A stretch of 64,000 nucleotides of DNA. It comes from a virus (lineage: Duplodnaviria; Caudoviricetes). Both the position numbers and the translations under genes were made by a program. The notes beneath the pieces were generated by a model. That model saw nothing but the letters and a program-made list of their open reading frames with translations. It had not been told where the DNA came from and did not search any database. How positions within the stretch are numbered: the first letter of the stretch is position 1; each line of letters starts with the position of its first letter. Below, in pieces: positions 11,970 to 64,000 of this stretch. Location: IMG/VR virus record IMGVR_UViG_2636415849_000003, positions 16,149-80,148 of that record, one strand, 5' to 3'.

Positions 11970-12817
11970 AGCTCAATCCCTTCAAAGATGGCCTTGCCGG
12001 CGCCGGCGTATTTGCCGGCTGCTGCGGACGCAGGAGCCATGGATGGACGGCGCGCTGCGGGCATTTCGGTAGCGCGGCGAATCCAGTTGCGCCAGGTAGC
12101 GCCCCAGTCGGCCTTGCGTCCGTCCTTGCCGGCCTTGGCGCGCCAGTGGTCGGCAAACATCGCAGCCTGGCGGCGCACCTCTTCCTCGGTCAAGCCGGCA
12201 TGTTCGGCAATGGCCCAGTCACCCCAGCTCTTGGGCAGCTTCCAGTCTTCGGGCAAGCGTGTTCCTGTCGCAGTCCTACCCCTTCCCTTGGCCGCTTCTT
12301 GCTGAGCCGGAGGCGAAGTGTCACGGTCAGCAGCACCTACAGCCTTTGAATAGGTAACTGTCTCTTCTTTATCTGTATCTATATCTGTATCTGTACGCGT
12401 GACATCCGTACCTGTCACGCGTGACTTGTCCGTGACCTCATCGTGACCACCCTCTTCTCCCTCTGAAGCAGCGTCTTTTTTGCGCTGGCGCTGGCGGCGT
12501 TTGCGCTCTGCTGCAGTGGTGTCGGTATCACTGCGCATCTGCAAAGTGGCCCACTTGGAGGGCTGCAGGGTGGCCTGTTCGATCAGCCCAACTTCTGCAA
12601 GGCGGCGGGCCACCTCTTCCAGGCTGCGCACATCCAGACCCAGCTTCACGGCCACCTTGCGCATCAGCAGCGCAGGTGCATCGCCCTTGTCCAGCAGACC
12701 CTCGCCCTTGAGGCACAGCAGGGCCACAAAGTGCCACCGGTCTTCAAAGGCCAGCAGCTTGAGCTTGTCGTCATCGACCATCCGTGTATAGGTGCGGAAC
12801 CATGGGAGCTTGCTCAT
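11966..12817 (-). CDS. Replication initiator (O-like)
   Basis: PWFRTY N-terminus, AERKRRQR, GTRLPEDW..DWGATWRNWIRR; internal iterons. Confidence 0.8.
   Translation of the reverse strand: MSKLPWFRTYTRMVDDDKLKLLAFEDRWHFVALLCLKGEGLLDKGDAPALLMRKVAVKLGLDVRSLEEVARRLAEVGLIEQATLQPSKWATLQMRSDTDTTAAERKRRQRQRKKDAASEGEEGGHDEVTDKSRVTGTDVTRTDTDIDTDKEETVTYSKAVGAADRDTSPPAQQEAAKGRGRTATGTRLPEDWKLPKSWGDWAIAEHAGLTEEEVRRQAAMFADHWRAKAGKDGRKADWGATWRNWIRRATEMPAARRPSMAPASAAAGKYAGAGKAIFEGIEL
12361..12450. repeat. Putative replication origin of prophage 1
   Basis: Several CGTGAC/GTCACG repeats next to AT-rich TATCTG repeats inside the initiator gene. Confidence 0.65.
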
Positions 12818-13545
12818 GCCGTCACCTCGCTGCTCATCTTCTCGCGCACCTGGTGCTGGCACCACAGGCCGGCAATCCACTCCACCCCCTTGGCGGTGAA
12901 CTTGTAGTGGACGAAGGCGTGCGAGGTCTCGCCATGCTCAGCCGTGCCCGTCTTGGCTTCAAAGCGGCCGTTGTGCATATGCTCAGCACGCGGCGTCAGC
13001 GGCCCCTGTGGCGTGGTGCGGTACATCAGTCCGCGCTTCAGGAGGAAATCAGTGAATGCGTTCAGCTTGGCGCCGAGGAGCTTGCATACCTCACGAACAC
13101 CCATGCTCCCAGTGCCTGGCTGCACGTAGCGATCGACAAATTCCGCCTTGGGCGCGACCAGCGCCAGCCGGGCCTCAGCCTCGATGCGGGCCTGCTCCGA
13201 TGCCATGGCCAGCTTGAGAATGTCCATGCGCGTCATCTGTGCTGGCGCAGGCTGCTGGGCCTCCAGCTCCTGCCAGCGCTTGACCACCTTCATGCGCGCC
13301 ACCGGGTCGTAGCCCAGCAGCAGAGTCAGGCTGGTGTCCTTGTCCAGCTCGTATTGGGGATAGCTCTGCTCGTTCTCGCCCACGTAAGTGCTTGAAAAAC
13401 AAACAGAACGCAATTCTGCGTTTTGCTGAAGCGCGTCCATCATGCTGCGGATGTCGCGCATCACGTCGGCATGGCGCTTGCCCGTCAGCTCCGCAATGTC
13501 GCGGCTGCTCATGGTCAGGGCCGTGGGGGTGGTGATGGCGTTCAT
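12814..13545 (-). CDS. Rha-domain + KilAC/ANT antirepressor-like protein
   Basis: MSSRDIAELTGKRHADVMRDI; APKAEFVDRYV..FTAKGVEWI. Confidence 0.85.
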   Translation of the reverse strand: MNAITTPTALTMSSRDIAELTGKRHADVMRDIRSMMDALQQNAELRSVCFSSTYVGENEQSYPQYELDKDTSLTLLLGYDPVARMKVVKRWQELEAQQPAPAQMTRMDILKLAMASEQARIEAEARLALVAPKAEFVDRYVQPGTGSMGVREVCKLLGAKLNAFTDFLLKRGLMYRTTPQGPLTPRAEHMHNGRFEAKTGTAEHGETSHAFVHYKFTAKGVEWIAGLWCQHQVREKMSSEVTA

Positions 13546-14006
13546 TGAGCGCCTCCTCGGATGGACTGCAGCAACTCGGCCGTGCACTTCATCAGCGCCA
13601 ACAGCAGAGGCTCAAGAGCGCGGCGGTCGTCTGCGCAAAAGTGGCCGTCCTGAGCTCGGGGAGAGCCTTCTGCCAGGGACTTGCTGGCAGTGCTGACCAG
13701 CTCCATAAACAGGCGAATGGAGTCAGAGGGGCTACGGTCCTCCATCTGGAAGTCCATAGGCACCTGCCCGACGAGATGGGCTAAAGCAAAGACCGCGCGG
13801 CGGGCCTGCGCCAGCACGATGATTTCCATCACAACACCAAATGAGGGCGGCGCCGCTTCATGGTCAGGGTTGATGCCGTTGGCCAGGGTATTGCCGTTCA
13901 GGCCGGCAATTTCTGCCAGCGCGCGAATGCCGCCTGGGTACTCCTTAGCGTCGGCCTGGAGCGCCAGAAACAGAGCGCGATGGGTTTGCTTAATGGTTCT
14001 ACGCAT
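13542..14006 (-). CDS. CII-like regulatory protein
   Basis: YPGGIRALA..NTLANGINP; position after cro. Confidence 0.7.
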   Translation of the reverse strand: MRRTIKQTHRALFLALQADAKEYPGGIRALAEIAGLNGNTLANGINPDHEAAPPSFGVVMEIIVLAQARRAVFALAHLVGQVPMDFQMEDRSPSDSIRLFMELVSTASKSLAEGSPRAQDGHFCADDRRALEPLLLALMKCTAELLQSIRGGAQ

Positions 14007-14168
14007 AGCGAATGCCTCGTGAGATTCGCCTACCGCTGATGCGGCAGAGGTTGGACACTGGCTGCATGAAAACGAAAACAGGCCAGAAGAGAGGAAAAGG
14101 TGCCCGCCGCACCCTGGGCTATGCTGGGAGCTCCTACACAACCAGCGCCAGAGAGGGCGAACGACAAA

Positions 14169-14633
14169 ATGGACTGGACAGCTATCGGAGGCATAACTGC
14201 TTCAATCTCCGCTGCTCGCGATATCGCCAAGGGATTGAGTGCATCCCGCGATGCCTCCCTCATCAACGAAAAGACCTCGGCCCTGCTGGAGCAATTGCTC
14301 AAGGCCCAGGAGGGACTTCTCGCTCACAACACCGCTCTTTTGCAGCTCCAGGACGAGCATTTCAAAGCCAGCGAGAAACTGCGAAAACTGGAAGAAGCCG
14401 CTCGCGAGCGTGGTCGTTACTCGCTCATCGAACTCACCCCCGGCAACTTCGCGTATCGAGTGAACATCACCCCAGAGCAAAGCAGGACCAGCGAGCCAGG
14501 AGCCGCGGAGCCGCTGCACCACCTGTGTCAGCCGTGCTTCGACAACGGGAGAAAGGTTGCACTGAACTATCGAAACCTCCACATCAGGGGCGAGGTCTGG
14601 ACGTGCAGCGTCTGCCGCGCGGAGATCGACTGA
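14169..14633 (+). CDS. Hypothetical moron, coiled coil plus C-terminal Zn ribbon
   Basis: CQPCF..CSVC; antisense to the early operon, convergent with cro. Confidence 0.75.
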   Translation: MDWTAIGGITASISAARDIAKGLSASRDASLINEKTSALLEQLLKAQEGLLAHNTALLQLQDEHFKASEKLRKLEEAARERGRYSLIELTPGNFAYRVNITPEQSRTSEPGAAEPLHHLCQPCFDNGRKVALNYRNLHIRGEVWTCSVCRAEID

Positions 14634-14635
14634 CA

Positions 14636-14872
14636 TCACTCCACCTCCTTTGCAGAGGTGGATGGCTGGGCCAGCTCTTGGCTGCTTTGGGGTTGTGTGG
14701 TGGTGGCAGCCATAGCGCGGCGCTCGTCAGTGATCCACTGGTGGTCTCGCTCCACATGCGCAGAAATGCCGCGATCCTTCCAGTTCTGAACACGTTGAAC
14801 AGAGAAGCCGAGGCGCTCCGCAAATTTGGATGCGCCGCCGAGCCAGGCAATGAGTTGAGCGTCTTGATGCAT
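14636..14872 (-). CDS. Cro-like HTH protein
   Basis: LGGASKFAERLGFSVQRVQNWKDRGI; divergent from cI. Confidence 0.8.
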   Translation of the reverse strand: MHQDAQLIAWLGGASKFAERLGFSVQRVQNWKDRGISAHVERDHQWITDERRAMAATTTQPQSSQELAQPSTSAKEVE

Positions 14873-14880
14873 AAACAAAT

Positions 14881-14934
14881 TACACATCACGTTTAAACAA
14901 AAGTCAAACAACGCGTTTAACAACGTTTTGTTTA
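14881..14934. promoter_or_regulatory. OR operators of prophage 1 (three 15-bp sites)
   Basis: TACACatcacGTTTA 14881, CAAACaacgcGTTTA 14905, ACAACgttttGTTTA 14920; consensus TAAAC-N5-GTTTA. Confidence 0.75.
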
Positions 14935-14954
14935 GTAAACGGAAAATCAAGCCA

Positions 14955-15647
14955 ATGCACCCATCCCTCGAACGCCTCTACCAAGCCGCAATGCAAGTGC
15001 GCGGAATCAGTGGCCAATCTGCCGTTGCCCGCTTGCTCAATGAATCGCCCCAGACAGTGAAAAACTGGGAAACACGCGGCGTTTCACGGTCGGGCGCATT
15101 GACAGCCGAGGTCGCACTGGGTGTGCGTGCGGCTTGGCTACTGTCAGGCGAAGGGGAAATGATTTACGGCGGCGGTGCGCCCGTGCTGATTGAGGCCCAC
15201 GCGCCTGCAAGCCCTGACGACTTGGTGCGAATCCCTTTGCTAGCCAATTGCGGCAGCATGGGCCCGGGCAATGATGTGCTGGACACCGATTACGTGGTGG
15301 GAGGCTTATCGCTGTCGGCTCACTGGATTAACCAGCAAATCAAGCCAACAAACTTTCAAGAACTGAAGTTCATTCACGCCCATGGAGAAAGCATGTCACC
15401 CACTTTTAGCGATGGGGATGTACTACTCGTGGATGTTGGGTCCCGCGACCCAGCCAGCCATGAGGGCGTCTATGTGCTGGAAGTGCAGGGCAAGTCATAC
15501 ATCAAGCGCGTGCGTATGCGCATGGATGGCTCGCTTGAAGTCAGCTCAGACAATGTGAACATCAAGACCGTTGACGTACTCAACGGCGACCATGAAGTGC
15601 AGGTCAAAGGCCGCGTTGTCTGGGCTTGGAATGGCCGCAAGCTGTAA
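14955..15647 (+). CDS. CI-like repressor (HTH + S24 autopeptidase)
   Basis: QSAVARLLNESPQTVKNWETRG; GESMSPT..DGD..IKRV. Confidence 0.92.
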   Translation: MHPSLERLYQAAMQVRGISGQSAVARLLNESPQTVKNWETRGVSRSGALTAEVALGVRAAWLLSGEGEMIYGGGAPVLIEAHAPASPDDLVRIPLLANCGSMGPGNDVLDTDYVVGGLSLSAHWINQQIKPTNFQELKFIHAHGESMSPTFSDGDVLLVDVGSRDPASHEGVYVLEVQGKSYIKRVRMRMDGSLEVSSDNVNIKTVDVLNGDHEVQVKGRVVWAWNGRKL

Positions 15648-15652
15648 GCGAA

Positions 15653-16411
15653 CTATGCGCTCTTTGGTAGTTTTGCGCAGCAAATAATAACCCGCCCCGT
15701 CGATGAGTAAACACGGGGCAGAAAGTCATCAAGGGACGCAAAACCCAGCGACCGCAGCGCATCAAGGTTCATAACGCAAACGCCCCCTGAGCCGCCAATT
15801 GAAGAAGGCGCGCTGATGTGCACATCACCATTTCGTTCAGCAAGCCACACATCCAGCACTGCGCCCGGATAGCAGCGATCCACGGTTTCCTCATCAACAT
15901 CGGCAGCAATGATGAAGGCGTGACCATCACGAACAAAGCAGTCAACGCGTAAACGCGGCGCGAGCATGGAATACCTCAGCCTGGGTGCGACCTTGTCTAT
16001 ATCGCTAGGCGGCTGCGAAAACCTCAGGCTCAGCGAGGCACTGAACTGAGGGCCTTCATCGAAAAGCATTCTTGTCACCCGTAGTGCAGCCGTTGTTACC
16101 GGTGGGTGGTAAATAGCATCGTTTTCGCACACGGCCCTCTTGTATCTGGCTGCTGACGCCTTGCACAGATACCCAATGTGATGCTCAACGCAGAGCACCT
16201 TCACAGCATTCCCGTCATGCGGATTTTCGGGTTCTGGCACAAGTGTTGCAGTCGCAAGGAAGAACTGCTCAAGTTCAGGCTCCCACGCAACGATTCTCTC
16301 CAGCGCTTGGGTGTGATAGCTGACACCCACAACTGACTCACCGTACCCCACCTGCTCAGGCCAATGCGGCACTCGAGCATTCGCCCTTCTTGATTTCTTC
16401 TTGATTTCCAT
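15653..16411 (-). CDS. HIRAN-domain protein (moron)
   Basis: VVGVSYH..LVPEPENPHDGNAVKV..IGYL. Confidence 0.75.
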   Translation of the reverse strand: MEIKKKSRRANARVPHWPEQVGYGESVVGVSYHTQALERIVAWEPELEQFFLATATLVPEPENPHDGNAVKVLCVEHHIGYLCKASAARYKRAVCENDAIYHPPVTTAALRVTRMLFDEGPQFSASLSLRFSQPPSDIDKVAPRLRYSMLAPRLRVDCFVRDGHAFIIAADVDEETVDRCYPGAVLDVWLAERNGDVHISAPSSIGGSGGVCVMNLDALRSLGFASLDDFLPRVYSSTGRVIICCAKLPKSA

Positions 16412-16478
16412 GTCTCCCCTCCCGCACTGCCTGTGCTTGTTGTTTTTCTATTGTGCAGGCAACTCAATAGCAATTATT

Positions 16479-16529
16479 TACACAACTTGTTTAAACAAAC
16501 TGTTGACCAGAATATAAACGCAATGTTTA
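16479..16529. promoter_or_regulatory. OL operators of prophage 1 (three 15-bp sites)
   Basis: TACACaacttGTTTA 16479, TAAACaaactGTTGA 16492, TAAACgcaatGTTTA 16515; same consensus as OR. Confidence 0.75.
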
Positions 16530-16841
16530 AATACATTCATCGCGAAACAACAAAGCAGCTCCCGATGGAGCGCAGCAGGAGTTGCAGACGCGATGGGTGC
16601 CAAGCGATCGAGCCGAGTGCCACGGGTCTTTAAAAAGCCAAGCACTCACCGTGAGCAATCGGGCACCAGCTCGCCAAAGAGCGAGATTCAAGGGGCAATT
16701 TGCTTGAGGGATCGCGTCACCAAGAGAAGCAAGACGCCAATCAAGCAGCCGCGCGCTGCGAAGGAGAACACATGCGAGATGAATAGGCCGGACGACCCGG
16801 CCCACCACTCAAAACACTCGCCACCCCTGGGCGATACCAGG

Positions 16842-16953
16842 GCCATCCGGCGTGACCACTCGAGCAGGTACGGCAGTTCAGGAATGGGCCTGGGCTGGCG
16901 GCAGTTAGGAACGCGGCGCTTGCGTCGTGGCGACAGTGGTCACACCAGATGGC
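16842..16953. ncRNA. Candidate structured RNA A (copy 1)
   Basis: 19-bp terminal inverted repeat; homologous element at 57122-57249. Confidence 0.5.
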
Positions 16954-17032
16954 TCTACCCCTTTGGTGTAAGACGAGCTCCTATTGATCGCCCGAAAAGC
17001 ATCATGCAGAATTCGACGCCATCTACCTGTTA

Positions 17033-17148
17033 CGCCGGGTCTGGGGTTAACTCCTCCCTCCCTTTCTGACCTCTTCCCCAGGCATGGCCCGAAAGGGTCA
17101 CCGGCTCTTTATTCAAGCCCGCAGCAACCACTCGCGGGCTTTTTCTTT
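17033..17148 (+). ncRNA. Candidate anti-SD sRNA B (copy 1)
   Basis: Three-way junction with CTCCTCCCTCC loop, then terminator; homologue at 57257-57366. Confidence 0.55.
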
Positions 17149-17177: not shown

Positions 17178-17903
17178 ATGGAAATCAAGATCGCTTTGGA
17201 TTTGCCCAGCATCATTGCCCAGGCTGTCAGTGCCGAACGCATCCAGCCCATCGTTGACAAAGCTGTCAGCGACGCGGTCAAAAGCGCCATTGACGATGCA
17301 ACAGGCTACCGCAGCGCGTTCCGCACAGCGCTGAAAGATCAGCTTTCAACAGCAATGCCGCACGGACTGGCGCTGGATGATGTAGCCAAGTTCCAGAACA
17401 TCCTGAATGGAGCCATCAACAAGCTGACTCAGGAGTGCAACGCCAGCGCTGTTCACACGGCAATCGAGAATGCTGTCAAAGAGGTGATGCCCGACGTGCC
17501 GGCTGTCATCAAAATGAGCGAGCTGCTCAAAGAGGCGCGCAGTGGACTGCACAAGGAAGAACATGAAGCCTTCTACGCCTACTTTGAGCCAAACGAGTAC
17601 AGCAGCGGCGGTGGCCTTCTGTTCTTGGACGAGGATGTGAACCCCGGCAGCAGCGGATATTCGGGCACCAGGCGAAGCCGCGAAGATCAAAAGTACAGCG
17701 CAAGCCTACGGCTGGCATTCAACGGTGAAGGCGAGGTGTACGCGCTACGCCTGGATGGCAAGGACGTCACACCGAAAAGCCGCCCAGACATCATTGGCCG
17801 CTTCGATTCAATTCTGATGGCCATGTACGTTGGCCGCACCCGCATCGAGGTGGACATGGATGACGACGACGTCGAAAACGCTGCCAGTGAGCAATGGGAA
17901 TGA
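17178..17903 (+). CDS. Hypothetical early phage protein
   Basis: AGGAG RBS; 241-aa ORF. Confidence 0.8.
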   Translation: MEIKIALDLPSIIAQAVSAERIQPIVDKAVSDAVKSAIDDATGYRSAFRTALKDQLSTAMPHGLALDDVAKFQNILNGAINKLTQECNASAVHTAIENAVKEVMPDVPAVIKMSELLKEARSGLHKEEHEAFYAYFEPNEYSSGGGLLFLDEDVNPGSSGYSGTRRSREDQKYSASLRLAFNGEGEVYALRLDGKDVTPKSRPDIIGRFDSILMAMYVGRTRIEVDMDDDDVENAASEQWE

Positions 17904-18229: not shown

Positions 18230-18293
18230 CTGCAGCGCCCACCTCCACCCAATCCGCCACCGCACCGGTGGCTTTCTCTTTTCTGGAGTCCTG

Positions 18294-19229: not shown

Positions 19230-19328
19230 GCACCTATTCATAGATTTGCATGAATCGGGCCGCGCACCCACATCAATGAATCGTCTGCCCGCCACTGCGT
19301 GGGCTTTTTTCGTCCAAAGGAGAACCCC

Positions 19329-19916
19329 GTGCAGATTCACACACAGAACGTCATCATCCTTCCACCGGCCGCAACTGCTGATGCCATGGCAAGCATGGAG
19401 CGACTCATGCAAAGCATTGGCCGCGCCGAAGCCCCTGCGGTCGCAGCTCAGCCAGGCTGCAAGCCCCAGATTGGCGACTACTGGCCCAACCAAGGCGGCT
19501 TCTACGCCGGCGACATGCGCAGCGATGACGGAACGATCTATGGACTGATCGTTGCCGATTGCGGCGACTCCAAAGACGCCGGCTCTGCCAAGTGGGGCCC
19601 GGATGGCGAACGAGACCTGTCCCACTGGGATGGCCTGGACAACACTCGCCGCCTGGGCAACGAATGCCCTGCCGCAAAGCTGGCGACCGCGCACTCAGCT
19701 GACGAGCACAAGGATTTCTACCTCCCAGCCCGCCGCGAACTGCAGCTGGCAGCCGCCAATGTGCCCCACCTCTTTGGTGATGAGAGCTGGTACTGGAGTA
19801 GCACTCACTACGGCCAGAGCACCGCCTGGGCCGTCGATTTTGAGTACGGAAACACGGACATCTTCAACCGGAACGACGAGTTCCGAGTTCGTCCCGTCCG
19901 CAGATTCATCTACTGA
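19329..19916 (+). CDS. DGR target protein 1 (DUF1566/C-type-lectin-like)
   Basis: GGFYAG, DFYLPARRELQL, WYWSST, AWAVDF..FRVRPVRRF; contains VR1; GTG start after AAGGAG. Confidence 0.88.
   Translation: MQIHTQNVIILPPAATADAMASMERLMQSIGRAEAPAVAAQPGCKPQIGDYWPNQGGFYAGDMRSDDGTIYGLIVADCGDSKDAGSAKWGPDGERDLSHWDGLDNTRRLGNECPAAKLATAHSADEHKDFYLPARRELQLAAANVPHLFGDESWYWSSTHYGQSTAWAVDFEYGNTDIFNRNDEFRVRPVRRFIY
19825..19904 (+). repeat. DGR variable repeat VR1
   Basis: 80-bp ungapped match to TR with 6 mismatches, all at TR adenines. Confidence 0.95.
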
Positions 19917-19958
19917 TCCCTTCAACCCTTCCTTCTCAAACCAACCACGGAGCCATCA

Positions 19959-20360
19959 ATGAGCACCACACCCGCAATCAACCAGCCCTGGCCCGAGCAG
20001 GGCGGAATCTTCATCGGCAGCCGCCTCATCGACGGCCTGGTACACCACGTCGTCATCCCTGGAGGGATTGAGTTCGACCATGCCGACATTCCATTCAGCC
20101 GAGTGGAGCAGGTCGTGGCCGAAGGCGATGAGCTGAACGGCTTCAGCGACTGGCGCGCCCCGGATAAGGAAGATCTGATGCTGGCCTATATCAATAGCCG
20201 CGAGCTCTTCGATACCGGCGACTGGTACTGGTCACGAACTCCGGATGGCGAGCACTGGGCCTGGGCCGTCGATTGTGAGTGCGGGCACACGGACGACAAC
20301 TGCCGGCGCAGCGAGTTCCGAGTTCGTCCCGTCCGCAGCTTTCCCGCTTCAGCGATTTAA
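19959..20360 (+). CDS. DGR target protein 2 (DUF1566/C-type-lectin-like)
   Basis: QGGIFIG, DWRAP..DL, WYWSRT, AWAVD..FRVRPVRSF; contains VR2. Confidence 0.88.
   Translation: MSTTPAINQPWPEQGGIFIGSRLIDGLVHHVVIPGGIEFDHADIPFSRVEQVVAEGDELNGFSDWRAPDKEDLMLAYINSRELFDTGDWYWSRTPDGEHWAWAVDCECGHTDDNCRRSEFRVRPVRSFPASAI
20260..20339 (+). repeat. DGR variable repeat VR2
   Basis: 80-bp ungapped match to TR with 13 mismatches, 12 at TR adenines and one T>G. Confidence 0.95.
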
Positions 20361-20366
20361 CACTTT

Positions 20367-20381
20367 GCGGGCGTAGCCCGC
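20367..20381 (+). other. DGR target-recognition hairpin candidate
   Basis: GCGGGC-GTA-GCCCGC, a GC stem with a 3-nt loop just downstream of VR2. Confidence 0.65.
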
Positions 20382-20388
20382 CTTTGGC

Positions 20389-20850
20389 ATGGCGCTCCAC
20401 ACTGACACCGAGATCTACAAATCCACATACGACTTGAGCAAGCTGGTCACCCAACTGGTGGCCAATATGCCTAGGAACTTCAAGGCTGACTTTGGCGCCG
20501 AGTTGCGGCGCCGGTGCATGACGCTGGTCATGCGCACCTACGAAGCCAACACGAATGCGGACAAGGCCGCGATCCTGCAGCGCATGCGCATGGAGATTGA
20601 GACCGTCAATCTCTCGCTGCGCCTGGCTGTGGATCTGCGCCTGATTTCGGTCAATCAGTACAGCCGCGCCATCGCCATCACTGACAGCATCGGCAAGCAA
20701 GCCACCGGCTGGCAGAAGTACTCGGAACGCGCGCAAGCTGCCGGCTTGTCAAGGCAGACCGGCCACAGCGCCTTGGAATCTGGTCGAGCCGCTGGGCCAC
20801 AAGCCCACCGAAAGGCGCATCAGGAATATCAGCAGAAGCATCTGCAGTGA
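20389..20850 (+). CDS. avd: Accessory variability determinant (four-helix bundle)
   Basis: IYKSTYDL..MPRNFK..LRLAVDLRLIS..IGKQATGW; lies between targets and TR. Confidence 0.88.
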   Translation: MALHTDTEIYKSTYDLSKLVTQLVANMPRNFKADFGAELRRRCMTLVMRTYEANTNADKAAILQRMRMEIETVNLSLRLAVDLRLISVNQYSRAIAITDSIGKQATGWQKYSERAQAAGLSRQTGHSALESGRAAGPQAHRKAHQEYQQKHLQ

Positions 20851-20906
20851 TTCCGCGCAGTTTGCCTGCTGAATGCTCGGCAGGCCGACGTGATCAGCTC
20901 GGCACA

Positions 20907-20986
20907 CCTGGGCCGTCGATTTTGAGAACGGAAACACGAACAACAACAACCGGAACAACGAGTTCCGAGTTCGTCCCGTCCGCAGA
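20907..20986 (+). ncRNA. DGR template repeat (TR)
   Basis: Copy of the VRs with 8 AAC triplets in the VR reading frame; between avd and RT. Confidence 0.95.
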
Positions 20987-21003
20987 CTCCACCGAGACAC
21001 ACT

Positions 21004-22104
21004 ATGGATACTGGCTATTCGCTCGAGAAGCTGGTGCAGGCTTACTTTGACTGCCGCCGGCACAAACGCACTACGGCCAGCGCACTGCTTTTCGAGCAGG
21101 CTCTGGAGCACAACCTCATGCAACTGCATGGAGAGCTGCAGGATGGCAGCTACCGGCCCGGTCCATCCATCTGCTTTGCGATCAGCCGACCACGGCCGCG
21201 CGAAGTATGGGCCGCCCAATTTAGAGACCGAATCGTGCACCATCTGCTCTACAACCAGATTGCCGATCGGTTCCACCGCCGCTTTATCGCGGATTCGTGC
21301 GCAGGCATCCCGGGGCGCGGCACGCTGTATGCAGCCCAGCGCCTGGAGGCCAAGGTGCGCAGCCAAACCCAGAACTGGTCAGTGCCCGGGCATTACCTGA
21401 AGATCGATCTGGCCAATTTCTTTGTTTCCATCGACAAGCGGGTGGTCTGGCCCCTGTTGGTCCAGCAGATCCCGGAGCGCTGGTGGCGGGGCTTAGCCAA
21501 GGTCATTCTTTTCAACGACCCGCGCATTGACTTTGAGCAGCGCGGCAGCGTTGAGACGCTGGCAGCAGTACCCGCTCACAAGCGCCTTGCCAATGCGAAG
21601 CCCTACTGCGGGCTACCCATCGGCAACCTGAGCAGCCAGTTCTTTGCCAATGTACTGCTCAATGAGCTGGACCAGCATGCCAAGCACAGCATCAAGGCCA
21701 GGCACTACACCCGCTATGTCGATGACATGGTGCTGCTGCACGAGTCACCCCAGTGGCTCAATGGGGCTCTGGACAGCATCAATGCATTCCTTCCCAGCCT
21801 GGGTCTGCAGCTGAATCCACGCAAGACCGTGCTGCAGCCGATCAGCCGCGGCATCGATTACGTGGGCCAGACGATCCACCACTGGCGGCGAACAACACGC
21901 CCACGAACGCTACAGCAAGCGCTCGCACGCATCGAGGTCATGCCAGCCGATGAGGTCTACGCCAGCGGCAACAGCTACCTCGGTCTGGTGCGCCAGTCCA
22001 GCGCCAGCCACAACGAACAGGCGCTCATCTGCAGAGCGCTACTTAGACGCGGGCATGCCATTGAGGGATTGCACCTCAGTAAGGCATTTCGCAAAAACCA
22101 CTGA
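21004..22104 (+). CDS. DGR reverse transcriptase
   Basis: FRDRIVHH, LKIDLANFF, GLPIGNLSSQFFAN, RYVDD; 366 aa with no maturase/endonuclease extension. Confidence 0.96.
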   Translation: MDTGYSLEKLVQAYFDCRRHKRTTASALLFEQALEHNLMQLHGELQDGSYRPGPSICFAISRPRPREVWAAQFRDRIVHHLLYNQIADRFHRRFIADSCAGIPGRGTLYAAQRLEAKVRSQTQNWSVPGHYLKIDLANFFVSIDKRVVWPLLVQQIPERWWRGLAKVILFNDPRIDFEQRGSVETLAAVPAHKRLANAKPYCGLPIGNLSSQFFANVLLNELDQHAKHSIKARHYTRYVDDMVLLHESPQWLNGALDSINAFLPSLGLQLNPRKTVLQPISRGIDYVGQTIHHWRRTTRPRTLQQALARIEVMPADEVYASGNSYLGLVRQSSASHNEQALICRALLRRGHAIEGLHLSKAFRKNH

Positions 22105-22150
22105 CCCCAGCCCGCAGCCGCGGGCTTTTCTCATTCTGGGAGCCACCTAT

Positions 22151-24250: not shown

Positions 24251-24449
24251 ATTCCTGTTGCCACAAGAAATTAAGCGAATGGCGTCAGCTGGAAAGCTGG
24301 ACCAGCAAGAAGCGTTTTTGAAGAAAGAGGGAATCCCTCATAAACGCCTGGGTAGGCGTATTCTTGTCTCTCGCGCTCATGCCCGGGCGTGGCTGACTGG
24401 AGTGGTTTTCACGCCTTCGCGCGGGATTAACTTAGGAGCTGTCAGATGA
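24234..24449 (+). CDS. Putative excisionase (DUF4224-like)
   Basis: FLLPQEIKRM..QEAFLKKEGIPH; directly upstream of int. Confidence 0.75.
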   Translation: MDQTGEFLLPQEIKRMASAGKLDQQEAFLKKEGIPHKRLGRRILVSRAHARAWLTGVVFTPSRGINLGAVR

Positions 24450-25805: not shown

Positions 25806-25821
25806 CTGTATTTATGTACAG
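25806..25821. promoter_or_regulatory. LexA (SOS) box
   Basis: CTGTATTTATGTACAG (CTG-N10-CAG) at the umuD start. Confidence 0.88.
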
Positions 25822-26254
25822 TCATCGACTCTTGAGCGGCATGCCCGTCCAACTCACTGCCTCCCCAGTTGCTTTGCCGCTGGCAGATTGCAGCGTGCGT
25901 GCAGGCTTTCCCTCACCAGCCGAGGACTTCTCAGGCAAGCGGCTAGATATTGCCGAGCTGCTGGTAGAGCATCCACAGGCCACATTCCTGCTGCGCGTGG
26001 CAGGGCCATCCATGCGCGAGTACGGCATTGATGATGGCGACATCATCGTGGTCGACCGGGCACTGCGCGCACGCCACGGCAGCATCGTCGTGGCCGTCCT
26101 TGACAATGACTTCACCGTGAAGGTCCTGCACAACGCTGGTGGCTGCTTCAAGCTCAGGGCCGGCAACCCCACCTATCCCGACATCGTCCCCAAAGAGAAC
26201 CAAGAGCTGGAAATCTGGGGCGTGGTCAAGTCCTGCATCAAACGCTTTGCATGA
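25814..26254 (+). CDS. umuD: DNA polymerase V subunit UmuD
   Basis: VRAGFPSPAED, GPSM, FTVK. Confidence 0.92.
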   Translation: MYSHRLLSGMPVQLTASPVALPLADCSVRAGFPSPAEDFSGKRLDIAELLVEHPQATFLLRVAGPSMREYGIDDGDIIVVDRALRARHGSIVVAVLDNDFTVKVLHNAGGCFKLRAGNPTYPDIVPKENQELEIWGVVKSCIKRFA

Positions 26255-26260
26255 GCATGT

Positions 26261-27559
26261 ATGTTCGCGCTCATCGACGGCAACAACTTCTATGTCAGCT
26301 GCGAGCGGGCTTTCAGGCCTGCCCTTGAGGGCATCCCTGTCGTCGTCCTGAGCAATAACGACGGCTGCGCCATCTCACGCTCCGACGAGGCCAAGGCCCT
26401 GGGCGTGAAGATGGGGCAGCCTTTTTTTCAGTTGCGCGACCTGGTCGAGCACAAGGGGCTTGTCTGCCTCTCACCAAACTTTGAGCTGTACGGCGACATG
26501 AGCGACCGCATGATGTCGCTGGCTGCCGGCCTGGGCCCCGTCCAGGAAATCTACAGCATCGATGAGTCATTCATTGGGGATCTGGACGGCGTGCGGGATC
26601 TCACGCGCCGCGCCTTTGCCATCCGCACACGCATCCTGAAATGGACAGGCATCCCTACATGCGTGGGCCTGGCTCCCACTAAGACCTTGGCCAAGCTCTG
26701 CAACCATGTCGCCAAGGACTCGGAGCGCAAGCCTGGCAGCTATCCTGCTGAGCTGCAGCGGGTCTGCAACTGGGCAGAGCTGTCCGAACAGCAACGCACC
26801 GACATTCTCGGCCGCACCGCCGCCGGCGAGGTCTGGGGCGTGGGCCGGCGCATCTCTGCCCAACTGGCTGAGCAAGGCGTGCTGACTGCGCTTGACCTGG
26901 CCAGGCTGCCCGCCCATGCCGCGCGCGATGGCTGGAGCGTGGTGCTGGAGCGCACCGTGCGCGAGCTGCAGGGCGTGAGCTGCATGACCTTGGAGCTTGC
27001 CCCAGCCGCCAAGAAGCAGATTGCATGCACCCGCAGCTTTGGACACCCCATCACCACCTTGCCGCCCCTTATCGAGGCCGTGAGCGAATTTGCAACCAGA
27101 GCCGCCGAGAAGCTGCGCGCCAGTGGGTTGCGCGCCGGCGCCCTGCATGTTTTCGTGCACACGTCGCCATTCAGGCCCGGTCGTAGGTTCTACGAAACGG
27201 CCGTAATTCAACTCCAGCCGCCCTCATCAGACACCAAGGCTCTAGTCAACGCGGCCGTGCGCGGCCTGCGATCGATCTACCAGCCTGGCTACCAACTATC
27301 CAAGGCCGGCGTCATGCTGCAAGACCTGTGCCCTGCAGAAGTACAGCAAGGCGATCTGCTTTTTCAGGAACCCAGCCGCGACCAAAGCAAGCTGATGGAA
27401 GCCATGGACCGCGTCAATGCGCGCTTTGGCAAGGGCACCGTGCATGTGGCGAGCACCGGAGTACCTGAGCAGGATGAAAGCGGCTGGCGCATGCGCCAAG
27501 AGCGCCGCACGCCGCGCTACACCACGAAACTGGATGACATTCCCATTGCCAGGGCCTAA
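26261..27559 (+). CDS. umuC: DNA polymerase V subunit UmuC (Y family)
   Basis: [23 protein letters not shown]-terminal [14 protein letters not shown]. Confidence 0.95.
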
Positions 27560-46699: not shown

Positions 46700-47031
46700 T
46701 GTTTCACCTGCCCCGCCTGCTTCAGGATGCGATAGACCGATGCACGGCTGATATCCAGTCTTCGGGCCACCTCAGTGGCATTGCGACCATTGAACAGCGA
46801 AAGAACCTGCAGCGCCTGATCCCGGCGCGCTGATGCGGTCCGGGGTGAGATACGCTGCCGATCCCCTTTGAACTCGGTGCGAACCGCATTCTTGAGCGCG
46901 GCCAGCTTTGCCGACTGCACGCCATCCGCAAAGCCTGGTATCTCAAGCAGCAGGTAGTCAAAGATCCGGTCCACCAGGTCGAAATCGTCATCATTGGCTT
47001 GACTCATTGTTTTCAGCTTCTCGCGGTTCAA
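46678..47031 (-). CDS. Mor/C-like HTH transcription activator
   Basis: VRTEFKG..FNGRNATEVARRLDISRASVYRIL. Confidence 0.7.
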   Translation of the reverse strand: MNREKLKTMSQANDDDFDLVDRIFDYLLLEIPGFADGVQSAKLAALKNAVRTEFKGDRQRISPRTASARRDQALQVLSLFNGRNATEVARRLDISRASVYRILKQAGQVKQSRSGSQ

Positions 47032-49079
47032 CCCAGGCGCAGGCGCGACACAGCCGCGCGACGCTGTTGATAGATAGGGGCATCGACTTCCTGCACTCGC
47101 TCAGCAACCAATGGCTGCGCTGCGACAGAGGTTTCCTCCATCACCTTCGGGACACTAAAGAGGTCTTCTGCAGGCTGCACCAGTTGCTCCAACTGCAACC
47201 ACTTGGATTCACTCCACTTGTGGATACCCTGGCACATGGCGGCATGCAGCGCATAGTTGCGAATATCGAGCTCCTCATTGCGAGGGCGACGCTTGACCCA
47301 TTTGTAGGCATCCTGGCCCTTGATCTTGGTCAGCACTCGCTGCTCTGCCGTGAGCTGCTCATAGAACTCACGCGGGAGATCTGTGCTGAAGTGCACATAG
47401 CCCGGCCCCGGCTCTGCAATAGCCAATTGCCCCAGCAGCAGATCCTTCGCCTGGTCGACGCCCACCAGGTGGAGCTTGATGCCGCGCTGCACCTTCATGC
47501 CACGATGATTCACTTCCTGCAGACTGCTAGGCCCCACGATGGGTTTGTTGTCGTCACCCTTGATGGCGCGCAGGTTCGGGATGCGCCCCTGGTTGTTGCG
47601 CACCCAGTTGTAGACGGCATGCGTTTGGTCTGAAGAGTCAATGCTGGTTGCGCTGATGCCCAGGCTGGGCCCGTGGCCTGCTTGCTGGAACCGCTGCAAC
47701 AGGAAGGCGGTGACCGGCTCCCAGTCCTCATCCACAGCCGGATTGCCGTCGATGCTGATCCGCGCGACTGGCCAACTCTCCATGCCGCGCCCCCAGGCCC
47801 AGATCGTGATCTGCCACCAGGTGCGCTGCACATCGACGCCAGCTGTGAGGTACAAAGCACCCTTGCATACCATGCCCAAGGGGTATGGCTCGGCACGCGC
47901 CTGCAAGGCGTGCTCGTCCGTTCGGTCGCCCTTGAGCTCCCAGGTCTCGCCCAAGGTTTCGTTGACGAACAGCTTCATGGGCTCCACGTCGCCGGCTTCG
48001 AGCTTCTTCAGTGCATTCTCGAATTCCTGCACGATGTCGGACCAGGCCCGTTGTGGGCTGTATCCCGTCCAGACATGCAGGCCCAGGGTCTTGGGCGGAA
48101 GGCAGGGGCGCAGATCCTTGTCGCGCCAGATACGGTCACGGCCGTAACGCTTGCCCGTGCGCTCGCACACCCAGGCACCATCCATAGGCACGCCACCGGC
48201 CAGATAGTCGGCTTGGGTGATGCTTTCCCGACAATGGGGGCACACATGGCGAACGCTGGCGGGGTTGCCCCGCTCCCACTGGAAGCCGTAACGCTTGTCC
48301 TTGCCACCCCACATCAACGGATGCTCAGCATCGCAATGCGGGCACTCGATGTGAAAGCGCACCAGGCCCTCAGCCTCTTCCACAGCATCCTCGATGTGGC
48401 ACATGCCCTTGAGCAGCGGCGTGGAGCCGCAGACGAGCTTGGGATAGGCAGCCCCCTCCAGACGGCCACGCGCCAGGCCACGGGGAGGGCCGGCCTTCTC
48501 GATGCTTCGATCAAACTTGGAGATCTCATCCAGGATGACCACCGCCACGGTAATGCGTCGGTACGCCCGCGCCGCCTTGCCGCCCAGCAAATGCAGCACG
48601 CTGTCCCGAAACGGCTTGAACTTGATGGTCTCTTCGGAGGTGCCCTTGCCCCGCTTGCGCGCCTTGTTGATCGAAGTGACGCCGGTCAACGGGTCCAGCA
48701 GTGGATCGATTTCCGTCTTGACGTAGTTGTCCCGGTCGTCATCAGTGGGCTGCCACAGCGCCTGCTTGCGGCGCCTGTGGGCGATGTTGTAGCAGACGAA
48801 GGCTGTGATCATCTTCGTATACCCGACACGTTTGGCCTTGACCACATCGAGCTCAACAATGCGGTCATCGCTCATGAAATCCAGAATGCCCACCTGAAAG
48901 GCCCAGGCCTCCCAAGCGCCCTTTTGGTGACTGCTCTCGCCGGCGAGCTTGAACTCGGCTTGCGCCCAATCCCCCAGGCGCTGCGGCGGCTCAGCGCGCA
49001 TGCTCTCCATGCCCAGGCGCACTGCAGCCTCAATGGCTTCGGCGGTTTCTGCGTGCAGCAGCTTTCCCATCGTGGTCAA
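47028..49079 (-). CDS. Terminase large subunit, lambda GpA family
   Basis: KAKRVGYTK, ILDEI, STP, LTAGVDVQ, RNEELD. Confidence 0.95.
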   Translation of the reverse strand: MTTMGKLLHAETAEAIEAAVRLGMESMRAEPPQRLGDWAQAEFKLAGESSHQKGAWEAWAFQVGILDFMSDDRIVELDVVKAKRVGYTKMITAFVCYNIAHRRRKQALWQPTDDDRDNYVKTEIDPLLDPLTGVTSINKARKRGKGTSEETIKFKPFRDSVLHLLGGKAARAYRRITVAVVILDEISKFDRSIEKAGPPRGLARGRLEGAAYPKLVCGSTPLLKGMCHIEDAVEEAEGLVRFHIECPHCDAEHPLMWGGKDKRYGFQWERGNPASVRHVCPHCRESITQADYLAGGVPMDGAWVCERTGKRYGRDRIWRDKDLRPCLPPKTLGLHVWTGYSPQRAWSDIVQEFENALKKLEAGDVEPMKLFVNETLGETWELKGDRTDEHALQARAEPYPLGMVCKGALYLTAGVDVQRTWWQITIWAWGRGMESWPVARISIDGNPAVDEDWEPVTAFLLQRFQQAGHGPSLGISATSIDSSDQTHAVYNWVRNNQGRIPNLRAIKGDDNKPIVGPSSLQEVNHRGMKVQRGIKLHLVGVDQAKDLLLGQLAIAEPGPGYVHFSTDLPREFYEQLTAEQRVLTKIKGQDAYKWVKRRPRNEELDIRNYALHAAMCQGIHKWSESKWLQLEQLVQPAEDLFSVPKVMEETSVAAQPLVAERVQEVDAPIYQQRRAAVSRLRLG

Positions 49080-56727: not shown

Positions 56728-56882
56728 AGTTACCCTCTTATAGATGTAACAGCATGATGCCATGACGATATAAATCGTCAGAAATTCGAAGTCTTGCGAA
56801 GTAAATTCATTAAGCCCGCGCCCTGCGGGCTTTTTTATGGCGAATCTGGAGCGCCTTTTCTCCAGTCAACAAGGAAACCTCA

Positions 56883-57077: not shown

Positions 57078-57121
57078 TCTGCTCGACCAACGGGCCCGCG
57101 CAATGCGGGCCTTGTCTTTAG

Positions 57122-57249
57122 AACCATCTAGCGTGACCACTCAAGCAGGTCTGCCGCCGCAGAAATGGGTCTGAGGCGTCAGCTATCAGGAACTTCAGCG
57201 CAGGGGTCGCACTCTACGTTGATGGCGACAGTGGTCACACCAGATGGTT
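57122..57249. ncRNA. Candidate structured RNA A (copy 2)
   Basis: 20-bp terminal inverted repeat; 25 bp identical to copy 1. Confidence 0.5.
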
Positions 57250-57256
57250 TCAGTTT

Positions 57257-57366
57257 CGCCGGGCCTGGGAGCTCTCCTCCCTCCCTCCTAACCACTTCCC
57301 CAGGCATGCCCACCAGGGCACCGGCACTTTTCATAAGCCCGCCAGCAACCGCTGAGCGGGCTTTTT
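57257..57366 (+). ncRNA. Candidate anti-SD sRNA B (copy 2)
   Basis: Same architecture as 17033-17148. Confidence 0.55.
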
Positions 57367-57377
57367 CATGGAGCCAA

Positions 57378-57724
57378 TGACCATGGCAACACCCGCCACC
57401 ACCGAGCGAAAAGCCCCCACCCGCCGCCGCGCCCCCAAGGCCGAGCACCTGAGCATGGCTCACCCCGATCTGCCACATACGGAACACCCGCATTTCTGGG
57501 TTGCCACCTATCTCGCTGATCTGGCTGAGCAAGTCGCACTTGAGCACCTCCGGCGAAAGATCCGTCCAAAGGTAGACAAGTTGACCTTCGATGCACTCTG
57601 GACCTCGGACACGTTCTACTTCGTCAGGATTAGTCAATCCGCTGAATTTGTGCGTAAGGAAGGGCTGCTGCTCTATGCATGGCCCGGAACCAAGCTGTTC
57701 ACCAACCCCGAAGCCCGCCACTGA
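57378..57724 (+). CDS. Hypothetical early protein
   Basis: GGAG RBS; stop lies in a hairpin loop. Confidence 0.65.
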
Positions 57725-57759
57725 GCGGGCTTTTCTTTTGCCCTCAACCGGAGAACCCC

Positions 57760-59641: not shown

Positions 59642-59740
59642 TCGCACAAACCATTCATAGATAACGATGGACTGAGCCAATCGCTCATATCAATGAATAT
59701 CCGCCCGCCACCGCGCGGGCTTTGTCATTTCTGGAGCCCC

Positions 59741-61327: not shown

Positions 61328-61384
61328 CCATCACCACCCGGCCCGCAAAAGCGGGCTTTTCTCATTCTTGTACGGAGCACCATC

Positions 61385-61964: not shown

Positions 61965-62042
61965 ATGAGCCGCAAACGAGACATACGCCGCGCGCGCCGT
62001 GAGCGCGATCAAGAGAAACGCAACCCCGAGCCCCGCCACTGA
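61965..62042 (+). CDS. 25-aa Arg-rich peptide
   Basis: Counterpart of 23903-23980. Confidence 0.5.
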   Translation: MSRKRDIRRARRERDQEKRNPEPRH

Positions 62043-62105
62043 GCGGGGTTCTTTTTTGGTGTGACGCCGGCATGCACTTATCACGCTCTTTGCAGCCCGA
62101 AATCA

Positions 62106-62686: not shown

Positions 62687-62748
62687 CAGCCCTTCCCACA
62701 AACACCAAGCCCCGCCTAGTGCGGGGCTTTTTCGTTAATGGAGCTTTT

Positions 62749-62965: not shown

Positions 62966-64000
62966 ATGCCCAAAAAAACAAAATATCCGCGACTCACCGC
63001 CCTGTCGCGCAGAAACAAGAATGGCAAAGTTCGCGTCTATTACTACTACTACCGCCGCGATCTTGGGCACAAAGACATCCCCTTGGGCAAAGACTTTGAC
63101 ACTGCCGTCAAAAAATGGGAGGAGCTGTCAGAAACCGGAACCATGCGCTCCGGCACTATTGGTGAGGCCTTGGATCGGTGGGAAGAAAAGGAGCTCATCA
63201 AGTACGAAAGTACGGAGACCAAGAACGGCTACATCAAGCATTTGCAGAAGCTCAAACCAGTGTTTGCCAATGCCACCTGGGATGACGTTGACCTTCCCAC
63301 CTTGCGCCAGTATTTAGATCTGCGCACCGGCAAGACCCAAGGAAACCGGGAAATGTCGTTGCTCTCGATCATCTGGCACAAAGCATTGGTTTGGGGGATG
63401 ACGAAAAAACCATGGCCCGCCCAAGGCGTGAAGAACTGGAAAAACGCGGAGCAGGCACGCGAGTTCGAGGTGACTGCCGAGCTATTTGCCGCAGTCTACG
63501 CCCAAGGCGATCAGGTCTTGCGCGATGGCATGGACATCGCAACAGCGACTGCCATGCGCCTCAAAGACGTGGCAGACGTGGACCTGCCCGTCAACGGCAG
63601 ACTCAAGCGCCTGGCCAACAAAACCAAGCGACTCAAGGGCGCAATTGAATTCATCGTTGCTGATTCGCCGGTACTGACCCGAATCCTTGAGCGGCGATTA
63701 AGCATAGAAACAGACTGCACCAAGCTGCTATGCACGCCTGACGGCAAAGCCGTCTCACAGCGCATGCTGTCCGACCGCTGGACTGATGCCCGCGATGCAG
63801 CTGCATACCGCGCCGAAGTCATGGGCAACAAAGAGCTCGGAGCAACCATTCGGGCCATGTACTTGCGTGATATGCGCAGCTTTGCCGCCGACCTTGCTGA
63901 AGATCTTGACGCCGCCTCCAAACTGCTCGATCACAACAGCAAAGTCACGACACGCAAGCACTACCGCACGAAGGCGCAACTGCTTAAAACTACCCGCTAA
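62966..64000 (+). CDS. int: Tyrosine integrase
   Basis: TAMRLKD, RDMRSFAA, LLDHN..TRKHY; homologous to 24446-25477. Confidence 0.92.
   Translation: MPKKTKYPRLTALSRRNKNGKVRVYYYYYRRDLGHKDIPLGKDFDTAVKKWEELSETGTMRSGTIGEALDRWEEKELIKYESTETKNGYIKHLQKLKPVFANATWDDVDLPTLRQYLDLRTGKTQGNREMSLLSIIWHKALVWGMTKKPWPAQGVKNWKNAEQAREFEVTAELFAAVYAQGDQVLRDGMDIATATAMRLKDVADVDLPVNGRLKRLANKTKRLKGAIEFIVADSPVLTRILERRLSIETDCTKLLCTPDGKAVSQRMLSDRWTDARDAAAYRAEVMGNKELGATIRAMYLRDMRSFAADLAEDLDAASKLLDHNSKVTTRKHYRTKAQLLKTTR

Follow-up and report, generated by a model that had tools for sequence, protein, structure and literature searches.

Results

Two copies of a small structured RNA in one provirus record

The window analysed here is a stretch of 64,000 nucleotides (positions 16,149 to 80,148) of the 80,148-base IMG/VR provirus record IMGVR_UViG_2636415849_000003 (Caudoviricetes). 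It holds two prophages, and each of them carries, on the plus strand and ahead of accessory genes, a copy of the same small structured RNA, here called S, preceded by a second structured domain, here called U. S belongs to a new RNA family with an open C/U-rich loop, and the core of this loop recurs in a small RNA (sRNA) on the chromosome of host bacteria, here called H. The evidence leans somewhat toward the view that S is a trans-acting sRNA of the Hfq type, which copies the seed of the host sRNA and pairs with G/A-rich sites that resemble the Shine-Dalgarno (SD) sequence.

The two copies and their parts are the following.

17031-17148, plus strand: S RNA copy A, whole match to covariance model R1 (117.4 bits, E 2e-26)
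17034-17038 and 17101-17105, plus strand: copy A outer stem GCCGG/CCGGC, from the sequence
17039-17046 and 17076-17083, plus strand: copy A inner stem GUCUGGGG/CCCCAGGC, from the sequence
17047-17075, plus strand: copy A C/U loop (seed) of 29 nt, with CUCCUCCCUCCC at 17051-17062, unpaired in the minimum free energy (MFE) fold
17085-17100, plus strand: copy A side hairpin P3, UGGCCC-GAAA-GGGUCA, covarying in the family
17106-17115, plus strand: copy A U-rich linker UCUUUAUUCA, from the sequence
17116-17148, plus strand: copy A terminator hairpin AGCCCGC/GCGGGCU with T-run, from helix 4 covariation and sequence
57255-57370, plus strand: S RNA copy B, whole match to R1 (104 bits, E 3e-23)
57258-57262 and 57321-57325, plus strand: copy B outer stem GCCGG/CCGGC, from the sequence
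57263-57269 and 57299-57305, plus strand: copy B inner stem GCCUGGG/CCCAGGC, from the sequence
57271-57297, plus strand: copy B C/U loop (seed) of 27 nt, with CUCCUCCCUCCC at 57274-57285, unpaired in the MFE fold
57307-57320, plus strand: copy B side hairpin UGCCC-ACCA-GGGCA, from the sequence
57336-57366, plus strand: copy B terminator, from the sequence

The fold runs in the order outer stem, inner stem closing the C/U loop of 27-29 nt, side hairpin, U-rich linker and terminator. Its 3' module consists of the linker (UCUUUAUUCA in A, ACUUUUCAUA in B), the hairpin and then UUUUUCUUU in A or UUUUU in B. When R1 is run over the 64-kb window, the next best match after the two copies has 13.2 bits. 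The folding energy of the 246-nt region at site B has z = -4.18, which is equalled by none of 200 shuffles, and that of the 311-nt region at site A has z = -2.38, equalled by one shuffle in 100. The original prediction, made from the letters of the window, had described a conserved structured RNA in both prophages, with these stems, a side hairpin of preserved pairing, a terminator and a C/U loop of anti-SD type. The features are present at both sites as it described them, the model scores of both copies are high, and the loop is unpaired in both MFE folds and conserved across the family.

The stems covary while the loop stays constant

Relatives of the two copies were found by a pattern scan of viral contigs, which gave at least 41 distinct true elements among 139 pattern matches in 129 loci; the remaining matches fell inside open reading frames (ORFs) and were discarded. 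R1 was built from 39 of the 41 elements, with two omitted for their aberrant 3' ends, and a search of 70 sources with this model returned 91 matches, 89 of them distinct. Five of the 91 are not S, four being a terminator only and one a tRNA with a terminator.

A first MAFFT alignment of the relatives was uninformative on stem covariation, because the search pattern had itself fixed the stems. In the R1 alignment of the 89 distinct matches, 91.4% of the cells are paired, compared with 24-53% once the 3' partners are shifted along by one to three columns, and 23 of the 25 pairs display changes on both sides. The observed covariation values are attained by none of 500 shuffles on any measure. Compensatory changes occur in all four helices: the side hairpin P3 has double changes in all five of its pairs, and the terminator helix 4 has changes on both sides in all seven. 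The inner stem appears as GUCGUGGG/CCCAUGAC, GCCAGGGA/ACCCUGGC and UUUCAUGC/GCAUGAAC, the outer stem as GCCGA/UCGGC and ACCGC/GCGGU, and the loop of the side hairpin as GAAA, GCAA, ACCA, CUUG or AAAUA. From the same alignment RNAalifold independently recovers the outer stem, the inner stem and the terminator, with 17 of 18 pairs compensated. A covariance model of homologues was a check that the original prediction had proposed, and by this check the two sites are the only ones matched in the window, and their pairing is backed by the changes on both sides described above.

S is therefore a real and new structured RNA family with more than 80 distinct copies, and this conclusion is well supported. 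One may ask, conversely, if the two copies could be a non-functional repeat, or terminators with a chance similarity upstream, and the weak matches to R1 that are a terminator only or a tRNA with a terminator (five of 91) speak for it. With compensatory changes in all four helices, a conserved loop, a wide distribution and presence in RNA libraries, we regard this as extremely improbable.

The loop statistics refer to 84 distinct true copies. The median loop length is 27 nt (range 15-33), 85% of the loop bases are C or U, and G accounts for 102 of 2236. The word CUCCUCCCUCC is present in 42 of the 84 loops, CCCUCC in 61 and CUCC in 74. The loop thus stays constant while the stems vary, and it is a conserved single-stranded C/U loop of anti-Shine-Dalgarno type. 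Its sequence is kept in front of unrelated downstream genes and also in those copies of tandem arrays that have no ORF behind them. A subfamily with a distinct loop, UCACAGACUCCUUUCACUUCCUCAACUU, occupies the first position in tandem arrays.

S is found in 30 of 41 sampled genomes of the GTDB genus that holds Comamonas and Delftia, with 1-8 copies each, and in only four of 151 genomes sampled from the whole host family. Named genomes with true S are those of Comamonas sp. Tr-654 (nine copies) and Delftia acidovorans NBRC 14950 (ten copies). Among the matches listed in the pattern scan of genome contigs, these two were the only ones confirmed by R1, and most of the others were unrelated; the pattern loci of Paracidovorax, Accumulibacter and Pseudomonas have no R1 match. 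Among isolated phage genomes, blastn gives no match to either window site. The copies are frequently arrayed about 275 nt apart (for example in loci L033, L043, L066, L277 and L280), and they multiply and diversify in the manner of sRNA families.

The loop is shared with a chromosomal sRNA of the host

When the complement of the loop word is searched for in five host genomes, each genome has, outside the S genes, one perfect site, which lies in the same intergenic region in all of them. The opposite strand of this site is the sRNA gene H (for example L313:1458-1600, minus strand; also L331-L372). H begins with an outer stem GUUGCGAAGC/GCUUCGCAAC, in which C-G is compensated by U-A. There follow a small, variable hairpin and a second stem with G-U pairs, which closes a 25-nt loop CUUCUCCUCCCUCCCUCUCUUAAUU, and the 3' end is made of a U-rich linker, a covarying terminator and a T-run. 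The stems and the terminator of H covary, and the G-U pairs are compatible with the C/U strand only. H is a single-copy gene, found by blastn in 38 of the 41 genus genomes and by covariance model R3 in 87 of the 151 genomes of the family sample (a tally that takes in the unpublished genome G150, on which no other result depends), and it lies on the chromosome between conserved neighbours. A 20-nt core of the loop, UUCUCCUCCCUCCCUCUCUU, shows no difference among 18 of 21 sequences from the genus or among the best 11 family matches. The H locus has no match in Rfam.

The longest exact run shared by an S loop and the H loop has a median length of 12.5 nt; it reaches at least 12 nt in 48 of the 84 copies and at least 17 nt in 16, with 13 nt for copy A and 15 nt for copy B. 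For 200 shuffles of the H loop that preserve its composition, the mean is 6.3 and the maximum 9.2. R3 gives no match in the window and R1 did not report H, from which follows that S and H are two distinct families that agree in their loop and in their overall design. Both have the loop CUUCUCCUCCCUCCCUCUCU, and both combine an outer stem with one open-loop hairpin, a single small side hairpin and, at the 3' end, a U-rich linker ahead of the terminator. The differences are that the side hairpin is placed 5' of the loop hairpin in H and 3' of it in S, and that H is a single-copy chromosomal gene with conserved neighbours, whereas S is borne by prophages in many copies.

sRNAs with a C/U seed are already known, and what is new is that the seed in the phage is the same as that of a core sRNA of the host. 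The simplest reading is that S acts on the targets of H.

Four further loci (L264, L296, L299 and L300, in genomes G001, G188, G184 and G191) give weak R1 matches of 36-42 bits, one per genome. Their loop word is the same, their stems are others (such as AUUCAUGC/GCAUGAAC), and a promoter-like AT-rich region reads TTGCAA-18-TATAGA. These loci may represent S-like genes of the chromosome that stand midway between S and H.

A linked upstream domain, and RNA that covers both

U was first seen from an alignment of sites A and B. It and the promoter-like and operator-like features around it are placed as follows.

16842-16955, plus strand: U domain copy A, closing stem CCAUC..GCGUGACCACU / AGUGGUCACAC..GAUGG with inner hairpins, common to site B
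57123-57250, plus strand: U domain copy B, its 3' limit 7 nt away from the outer stem of S, common to site A
16984-17012, plus strand: promoter-like TTGATC-17 nt-CAGAAT of copy A, scoring 8/12, under the scan threshold
16478-16532, plus strand: operator-like repeat TTACACAnCnnGTTTAAACAAA with a pL-like TTGACC-18 nt-TTAAAT recognised by eye, some 310 nt ahead of U

The original prediction had set the 5' limit of the conserved element at S, which proves too narrow, as conservation continues upstream into U. For the same reason its statement that the flanking genes of the two sites are unrelated stands for the downstream side and falls for the upstream side, where the U block is shared.

The consensus fold of U, derived from 18 relatives of 91-128 nt, has 31 pairs, nine of them with compensatory changes. 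It is composed of a closing stem that hardly varies, an inner hairpin that covaries and has the loop AAUNNG, and an optional second hairpin, and its numerous G-U pairs are compatible with the plus strand only. U has no match in Rfam. Linkage of U to S was scored with covariance model R2 on the same strand and differs between genomes. In G189, U lies upstream of all eight S copies at 6-81 nt; in G178 it lies within about 80 nt for three of five copies, with one more at about 1 kb; in G186 it lies within 80 nt for four copies, with one at 303 nt and one at about 1.2 kb; and in G001 it precedes three of nine. The Delftia genome G003 has ten copies of S and no match to U.

Spacers of about 78 nt between U and S hold the motif TTGATY-17 nt-CAnAAT, with CCAUCU following 7 nt on. 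Of 80 distinct upstream regions, 21 have this motif at a fixed position, where its -10 part ends 20-22 nt ahead of the outer stem. A sigma-70 scan gives no promoter at threshold near either S copy. Further upstream in prophage 1, the 22-nt repeat at 16478-16499 is common to the cI/cro intergenic region at 14880-14901 (86% identical), and a palindrome at 16482-16503 includes part of it. The repeats at 14880-14934 and 16478-16505 are likely to mark OR and OL of prophage 1, and since the shared repeat overlaps with TTGACC-18-TTAAAT, a repressor-controlled pL-like promoter probably lies upstream of U. The word GTGGTCAC was tried as an operator word and rejected, since its 63 matches in the window, where 50.9 are expected, are no enrichment.

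The same interval contains an open frame of 158 codons (16593-17069) with a very basic N-terminus, an SD 11 nt upstream and no family match, which extends from the pL-like region across U and half of S. It is probably not a gene, though it may encode an N-like peptide.

The RNA data are assembled contigs of metatranscriptome runs, and contigs over U and S occur in four runs from three studies. In run X10 (47 million letters) the mean depth is 347, 368 and 74 over 16840-16994, 16965-17122 and 17093-17133. In run X6 a single contig of 212 nt covers 16914-17125, so that U and S are contiguous in it. For a run of this small size, a depth of about 350 exceeds what genomic DNA of a 5-Mb organism would give, which suggests that abundant RNA spans U, the spacer and S. 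The deep U-containing contigs stop at the S terminator, while in run X12 one contig (record 9) leads from 17096 past the terminator into the downstream ORF of a relative. Cover starts at 16812-16840, and the four runs have no contig over 17180-17950. This missing cover is not counted as evidence of a transcript end, because the flanks of the relatives differ and contigs break at branch points.

S as leader and terminator of accessory operons

In prophage 1 the Cro-like, CII and Ant genes are on the minus strand (12814-14850), followed by the CI repressor (14928-15647, plus strand), the HIRAN-domain gene between cI and OL (15653-16411, minus strand) and then U and S, behind which a plus-strand operon contains phrog_2600, RdgC, a diversity-generating retroelement and an integrase at 24446. 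In prophage 2, U and S are within a plus-strand operon with small ORFs, exonuclease, methylase, Lar and an integrase at 62966. The first ORFs after the two copies and the strong intrinsic terminators of the accessory operons are these.

17178-17903, plus strand: first ORF after copy A, phrog_2600, with SD and ATG 29 nt past the T-run
57368-57724, plus strand: first ORF after copy B, no family match, with candidate starts at 57368, 57377 and 57383 directly past the T-run
18256-18272, 19287-19304 and 22109-22126, plus strand: strong intrinsic terminators in the operon of prophage 1
56812-56832, 57092-57112, 57710-57733 and 59703-59720, plus strand: strong intrinsic terminators in the operon of prophage 2
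61340-61357, 62028-62051 and 62707-62729, plus strand: further strong intrinsic terminators in the same operon

Across the family, an ORF of at least 45 codons with an SD begins at most 33 nt past the T-run in 34 of 86 copies, which leaves no space for a promoter. The 33 distinct proteins encoded directly downstream of S include 17 that match phage families, with exonuclease phrog_255 first, then phrog_2600, 6694, 35287, 4245, 318 and others. Genome G189 has its eight S copies in seven regions. In three of these (L373, L374 and L375) S separates a block of repressor, CII and Ant genes from an operon with exonuclease, RdgC and methylase, in L377 RdgC is downstream of S, and the other three look like remnants or are ambiguous. 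S also serves, then, as leader and terminator of the downstream operon. Strong terminators, many of them sharing the form AGCCCGC..GCGGGCU-UUUU with that of S, stand after nearly every gene of the accessory operons, and from this follows that read-through or antitermination must occur. No antiterminator resembling N or Q was recognised, and a comparison of 15 loci shows that the ORFs ahead of U have no mutual relationship and include no conserved N-like gene.

Consider, then, the case where S and U together serve the early accessory operon chiefly as a leader that acts in cis, with a terminator that works as an attenuator and has to be overridden by a put-like RNA antiterminator (U), by a complex of the boxA/Nus type or by a phage protein. 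The order in prophage 1, from the operator and pL-like site at 16478-16532 through U, S and the genes to the integrase, agrees with this, as do the three regions of G189 with S between immunity genes and operon, the short distance from the T-run to the downstream ORF, the many terminators that call for processive antitermination, and the contig of run X12 that passes the terminator. The lack of a conserved N-like protein is the situation in HK022, and the linker word GCUCUUUA of copy A resembles the boxA consensus.

A cis switch leaves unexplained, on the other hand, why the loop is conserved in front of unrelated genes and in array copies without an ORF. The boxA-like word is not constant (GCACUUUUCA at site B, GCAUUUUU and GCUUUUUC elsewhere), and the variable loop of the side hairpin is unlike a boxB. 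Two terminators lie upstream of U in prophage 2, the Delftia genome has ten copies of S and no U match, and the deep U-containing contigs end at the terminator of S. The put architecture, which is a protein-independent RNA of about 70 nt with two stem-loops just downstream of the early promoter (PMC9378689), is absent from U. On balance we find it unlikely that the cis role is the main one, and the trans and cis roles of S may coexist.

Two candidates of this kind were rejected. A lambda-type nut site does not fit, as GCUCUUUA is confined to a subfamily, the loops of the side hairpin vary and the ORFs upstream of U are diverse. The put RNA of HK022 does not fit either, as U, 91-128 nt long, encloses one or two hairpins within a closing stem, and S folds differently.

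How S may act on the targets of H

A U-rich stretch followed by a terminator hairpin and a U-tail is the usual Hfq-binding 3' module. S has an intrinsic terminator and U-tail after a U-rich stretch, and it also has a conserved single-stranded seed held by covarying structure, both of which are marks of an Hfq-type sRNA. For a trans-acting S the following course of events is proposed. The core of about 115 nt would, in many loci, be produced as or within a U-S transcript of 240-300 nt. Its stems would hold the G-poor loop of 27-29 nt open, and the open loop would offer CUCCUCCCUCCC(UCU), which is identical to the near-invariant loop sequence of H. The U-rich linker, terminator hairpin and U-tail are predicted to bind Hfq. 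S would then pair with the G/A-rich SD-like sites that H recognises and alter their translation, so that lysogens or infected cells would receive an H-like regulator in added amount or at other times. The terminator of S would also halt transcription ahead of the accessory genes, among them those for exonuclease, RdgC and methylase, which start only a few bases on. The original prediction had taken S for an early phage RNA that blocks translation; early timing, such a block and toxicity are conjectural features of S.

Several observations weigh against this course of events. When the two loops are paired with 70 start regions of the window, the median duplex energy, given for the loop of copy A, is -9.1, the same as for random 45-mers (-9.15), and in the five host genomes sites with at most one mismatch to the 12-nt complement are no commoner than those of a reversed-pattern control. 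The position of S, beside the immunity region and ahead of an operon whose first ORF often follows the terminator closely, is that of a cis-acting leader. A promoter-like motif of its own is found in only about a quarter of the copies, and site B is without one between U and S. The metatranscriptome contigs do not reveal RNA ends, strand or level, and the covariation alignment was fitted to R1 itself, which biases it toward the structure. Finally, because H and S fail to match each other's models, their shared loop could be convergence on a generic anti-SD sequence and not mimicry.

The two best duplexes in start regions are leads only: a terminase-size ORF at 47028-49079 (-25.8) and the HIRAN gene at 15653-16411 (SD region GGGAGGGGAGAC, -24.4). 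In G189 the near-complement sites fall away from gene starts.

S might also be a decoy or competitor, which titrates a binder of the H loop, be it Hfq, a sponge RNA or a protein with affinity for C/U stretches (ribosomal protein S1, for instance), or competes with H on its targets, and which disturbs the regulation by H in this way. The loop sequence shared with H, up to eight S copies per genome against one of H, the high depth in one metatranscriptome and the fact that no extended target was found in window start regions or host genomes can all be read in its favour. A G-rich complementary partner RNA is missing, as the only exact 12-nt complement outside S is the antisense strand of H (in five of five genomes), and a decoy differs from an S that acts like H solely in the sign of the effect. 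We consider it distinctly improbable, more so than the cis leader.

A trans-acting S with the seed of H remains the reading that we prefer, and it has a bolder form, which we put forward only tentatively and hold to be rather doubtful. In this form temperate phages of Comamonas and Delftia would carry, in up to eight copies per genome, an sRNA that copies the near-invariant H seed (12-18 nt) and takes over or overdrives the H regulon, while the linked U, invariant in sequence, would be a new RNA switch, either an antiterminator or a processing signal, that decides between an end at the sRNA and run-on into the terminator-studded operon.

Phage regulatory RNAs outside the enterobacteria are poorly charted, and S adds to them a large family with a candidate mode of action. 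H, not listed before, is a chromosomal sRNA that has this loop as well and occurs in over half of the genomes sampled from a large family of betaproteobacteria. Should the copies in the phages work via the H seed, this would be viral mimicry at the level of RNA. U and the terminator-rich operons, in turn, raise the question of how lambdoid phages pass their own terminators without a recognisable N or Q.

Comparison with known systems

In the literature that was searched no description of S, U or H was found, although the supplementary lists of papers on cuckoo RNAs and toxic sRNAs might include relatives. The original prediction had linked S to these two groups and had named an Rfam scan as a check. 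At gathering thresholds Rfam gives nothing at the S sites, and matches below threshold are driven by the terminator and the C/U run. The betaproteobacterial toxic small RNA RF02278 has 19.5 bits against a cut-off of 50 (E 0.23) and covers only the linker and terminator at 17096-17147, and ar14 (RF02344), taken as proxy for the cuckoo RNAs, has 17.2 bits against 58.8 (E 0.77). With scores below the cut-offs and a different architecture, the link to either family is not sustained.

The toxic or double-hairpin sRNAs (RF02278; ncS03, ncS05 and NcS27 of Burkholderia cenocepacia) are like S in being betaproteobacterial, in having a C/U stretch directed at the ribosome-binding site (RBS) and a terminator, and in occurring in multiple copies (PMC5688073, PMC4603805). 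They are chromosomal RNAs of 57-92 nt with two hairpins, ribosome-binding sites are the predicted places where their unpaired C/U stretches pair, and growth is altered when NcS27 is over-expressed or silenced (PMC5688073). S, by comparison, has about 115 nt, four helices with a three-way core and terminator, a prophage location and often a junction to U.

The cuckoo RNAs (RSs0680/CcsR, ar14, SmelC397) resemble S in their anti-SD C/U loop (CCUCCUCCC as against CUCCUCCCUCCC), in compensated stems around a fixed loop and in being multi-copy. Their description places them in alphaproteobacteria, with 2-4 adjacent hairpins that carry the motif in each small loop, and proposes that the anti-SD-like loop CCUCCUCCC pairs with the RBS (PMC4615179). 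S has instead a single C/U hairpin, with its loop of 27-29 nt inside an outer stem, and the exact cuckoo 9-mer CCUCCUCCC is absent from both window loops, which have UCUCCUCCC in B and ACUCCUCCC in A.

Among lambdoid leaders, lambda nutL, HK022 putL and the lambda pR'-6S RNA-tR' segment lie, as S does, between immunity genes and a terminator-containing operon. A short terminated RNA directly ahead of the genes is a further likeness. S differs from these leaders in that it lacks a conserved boxA/boxB and a two-stem fold of the put kind and is not accompanied by an N-like gene, and its strongly conserved open loop is without counterpart in them.

DicF, IsrK/C4 and the anti-sRNAs AgvB/AsxR are cargo sRNA genes in the early regions of enterobacterial prophages, which target host mRNAs or sRNAs. 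None of them is known to copy the seed of a core host sRNA, and as described they have no relation to S in sequence or structure. The BRE repeat of Bordetella and Delftia, described as about 90 bp with 69% GC in head-to-tail arrays (PMC3110155), was considered too, and by this description it does not fit S or U.

Other features of the window

The diversity-generating retroelement of prophage 1 (19299-22104) is in the early accessory operon, away from tail genes. It comprises two target-like genes with Lcl_C/phrog_4245 C-termini (19299-19916 and 19959-20360), Avd (20389-20850), an Rfam RT-15 RNA (20729-20909, 142 bits) and, at 21004-22104, the reverse transcriptase. Between the two prophages, a UmuD-like gene (S24 peptidase) and a gene for a UmuC/ImpB-type polymerase occupy 25814-27559, with the integrase of prophage 1 as their immediate upstream neighbour, and this pair could be cargo or host flank.

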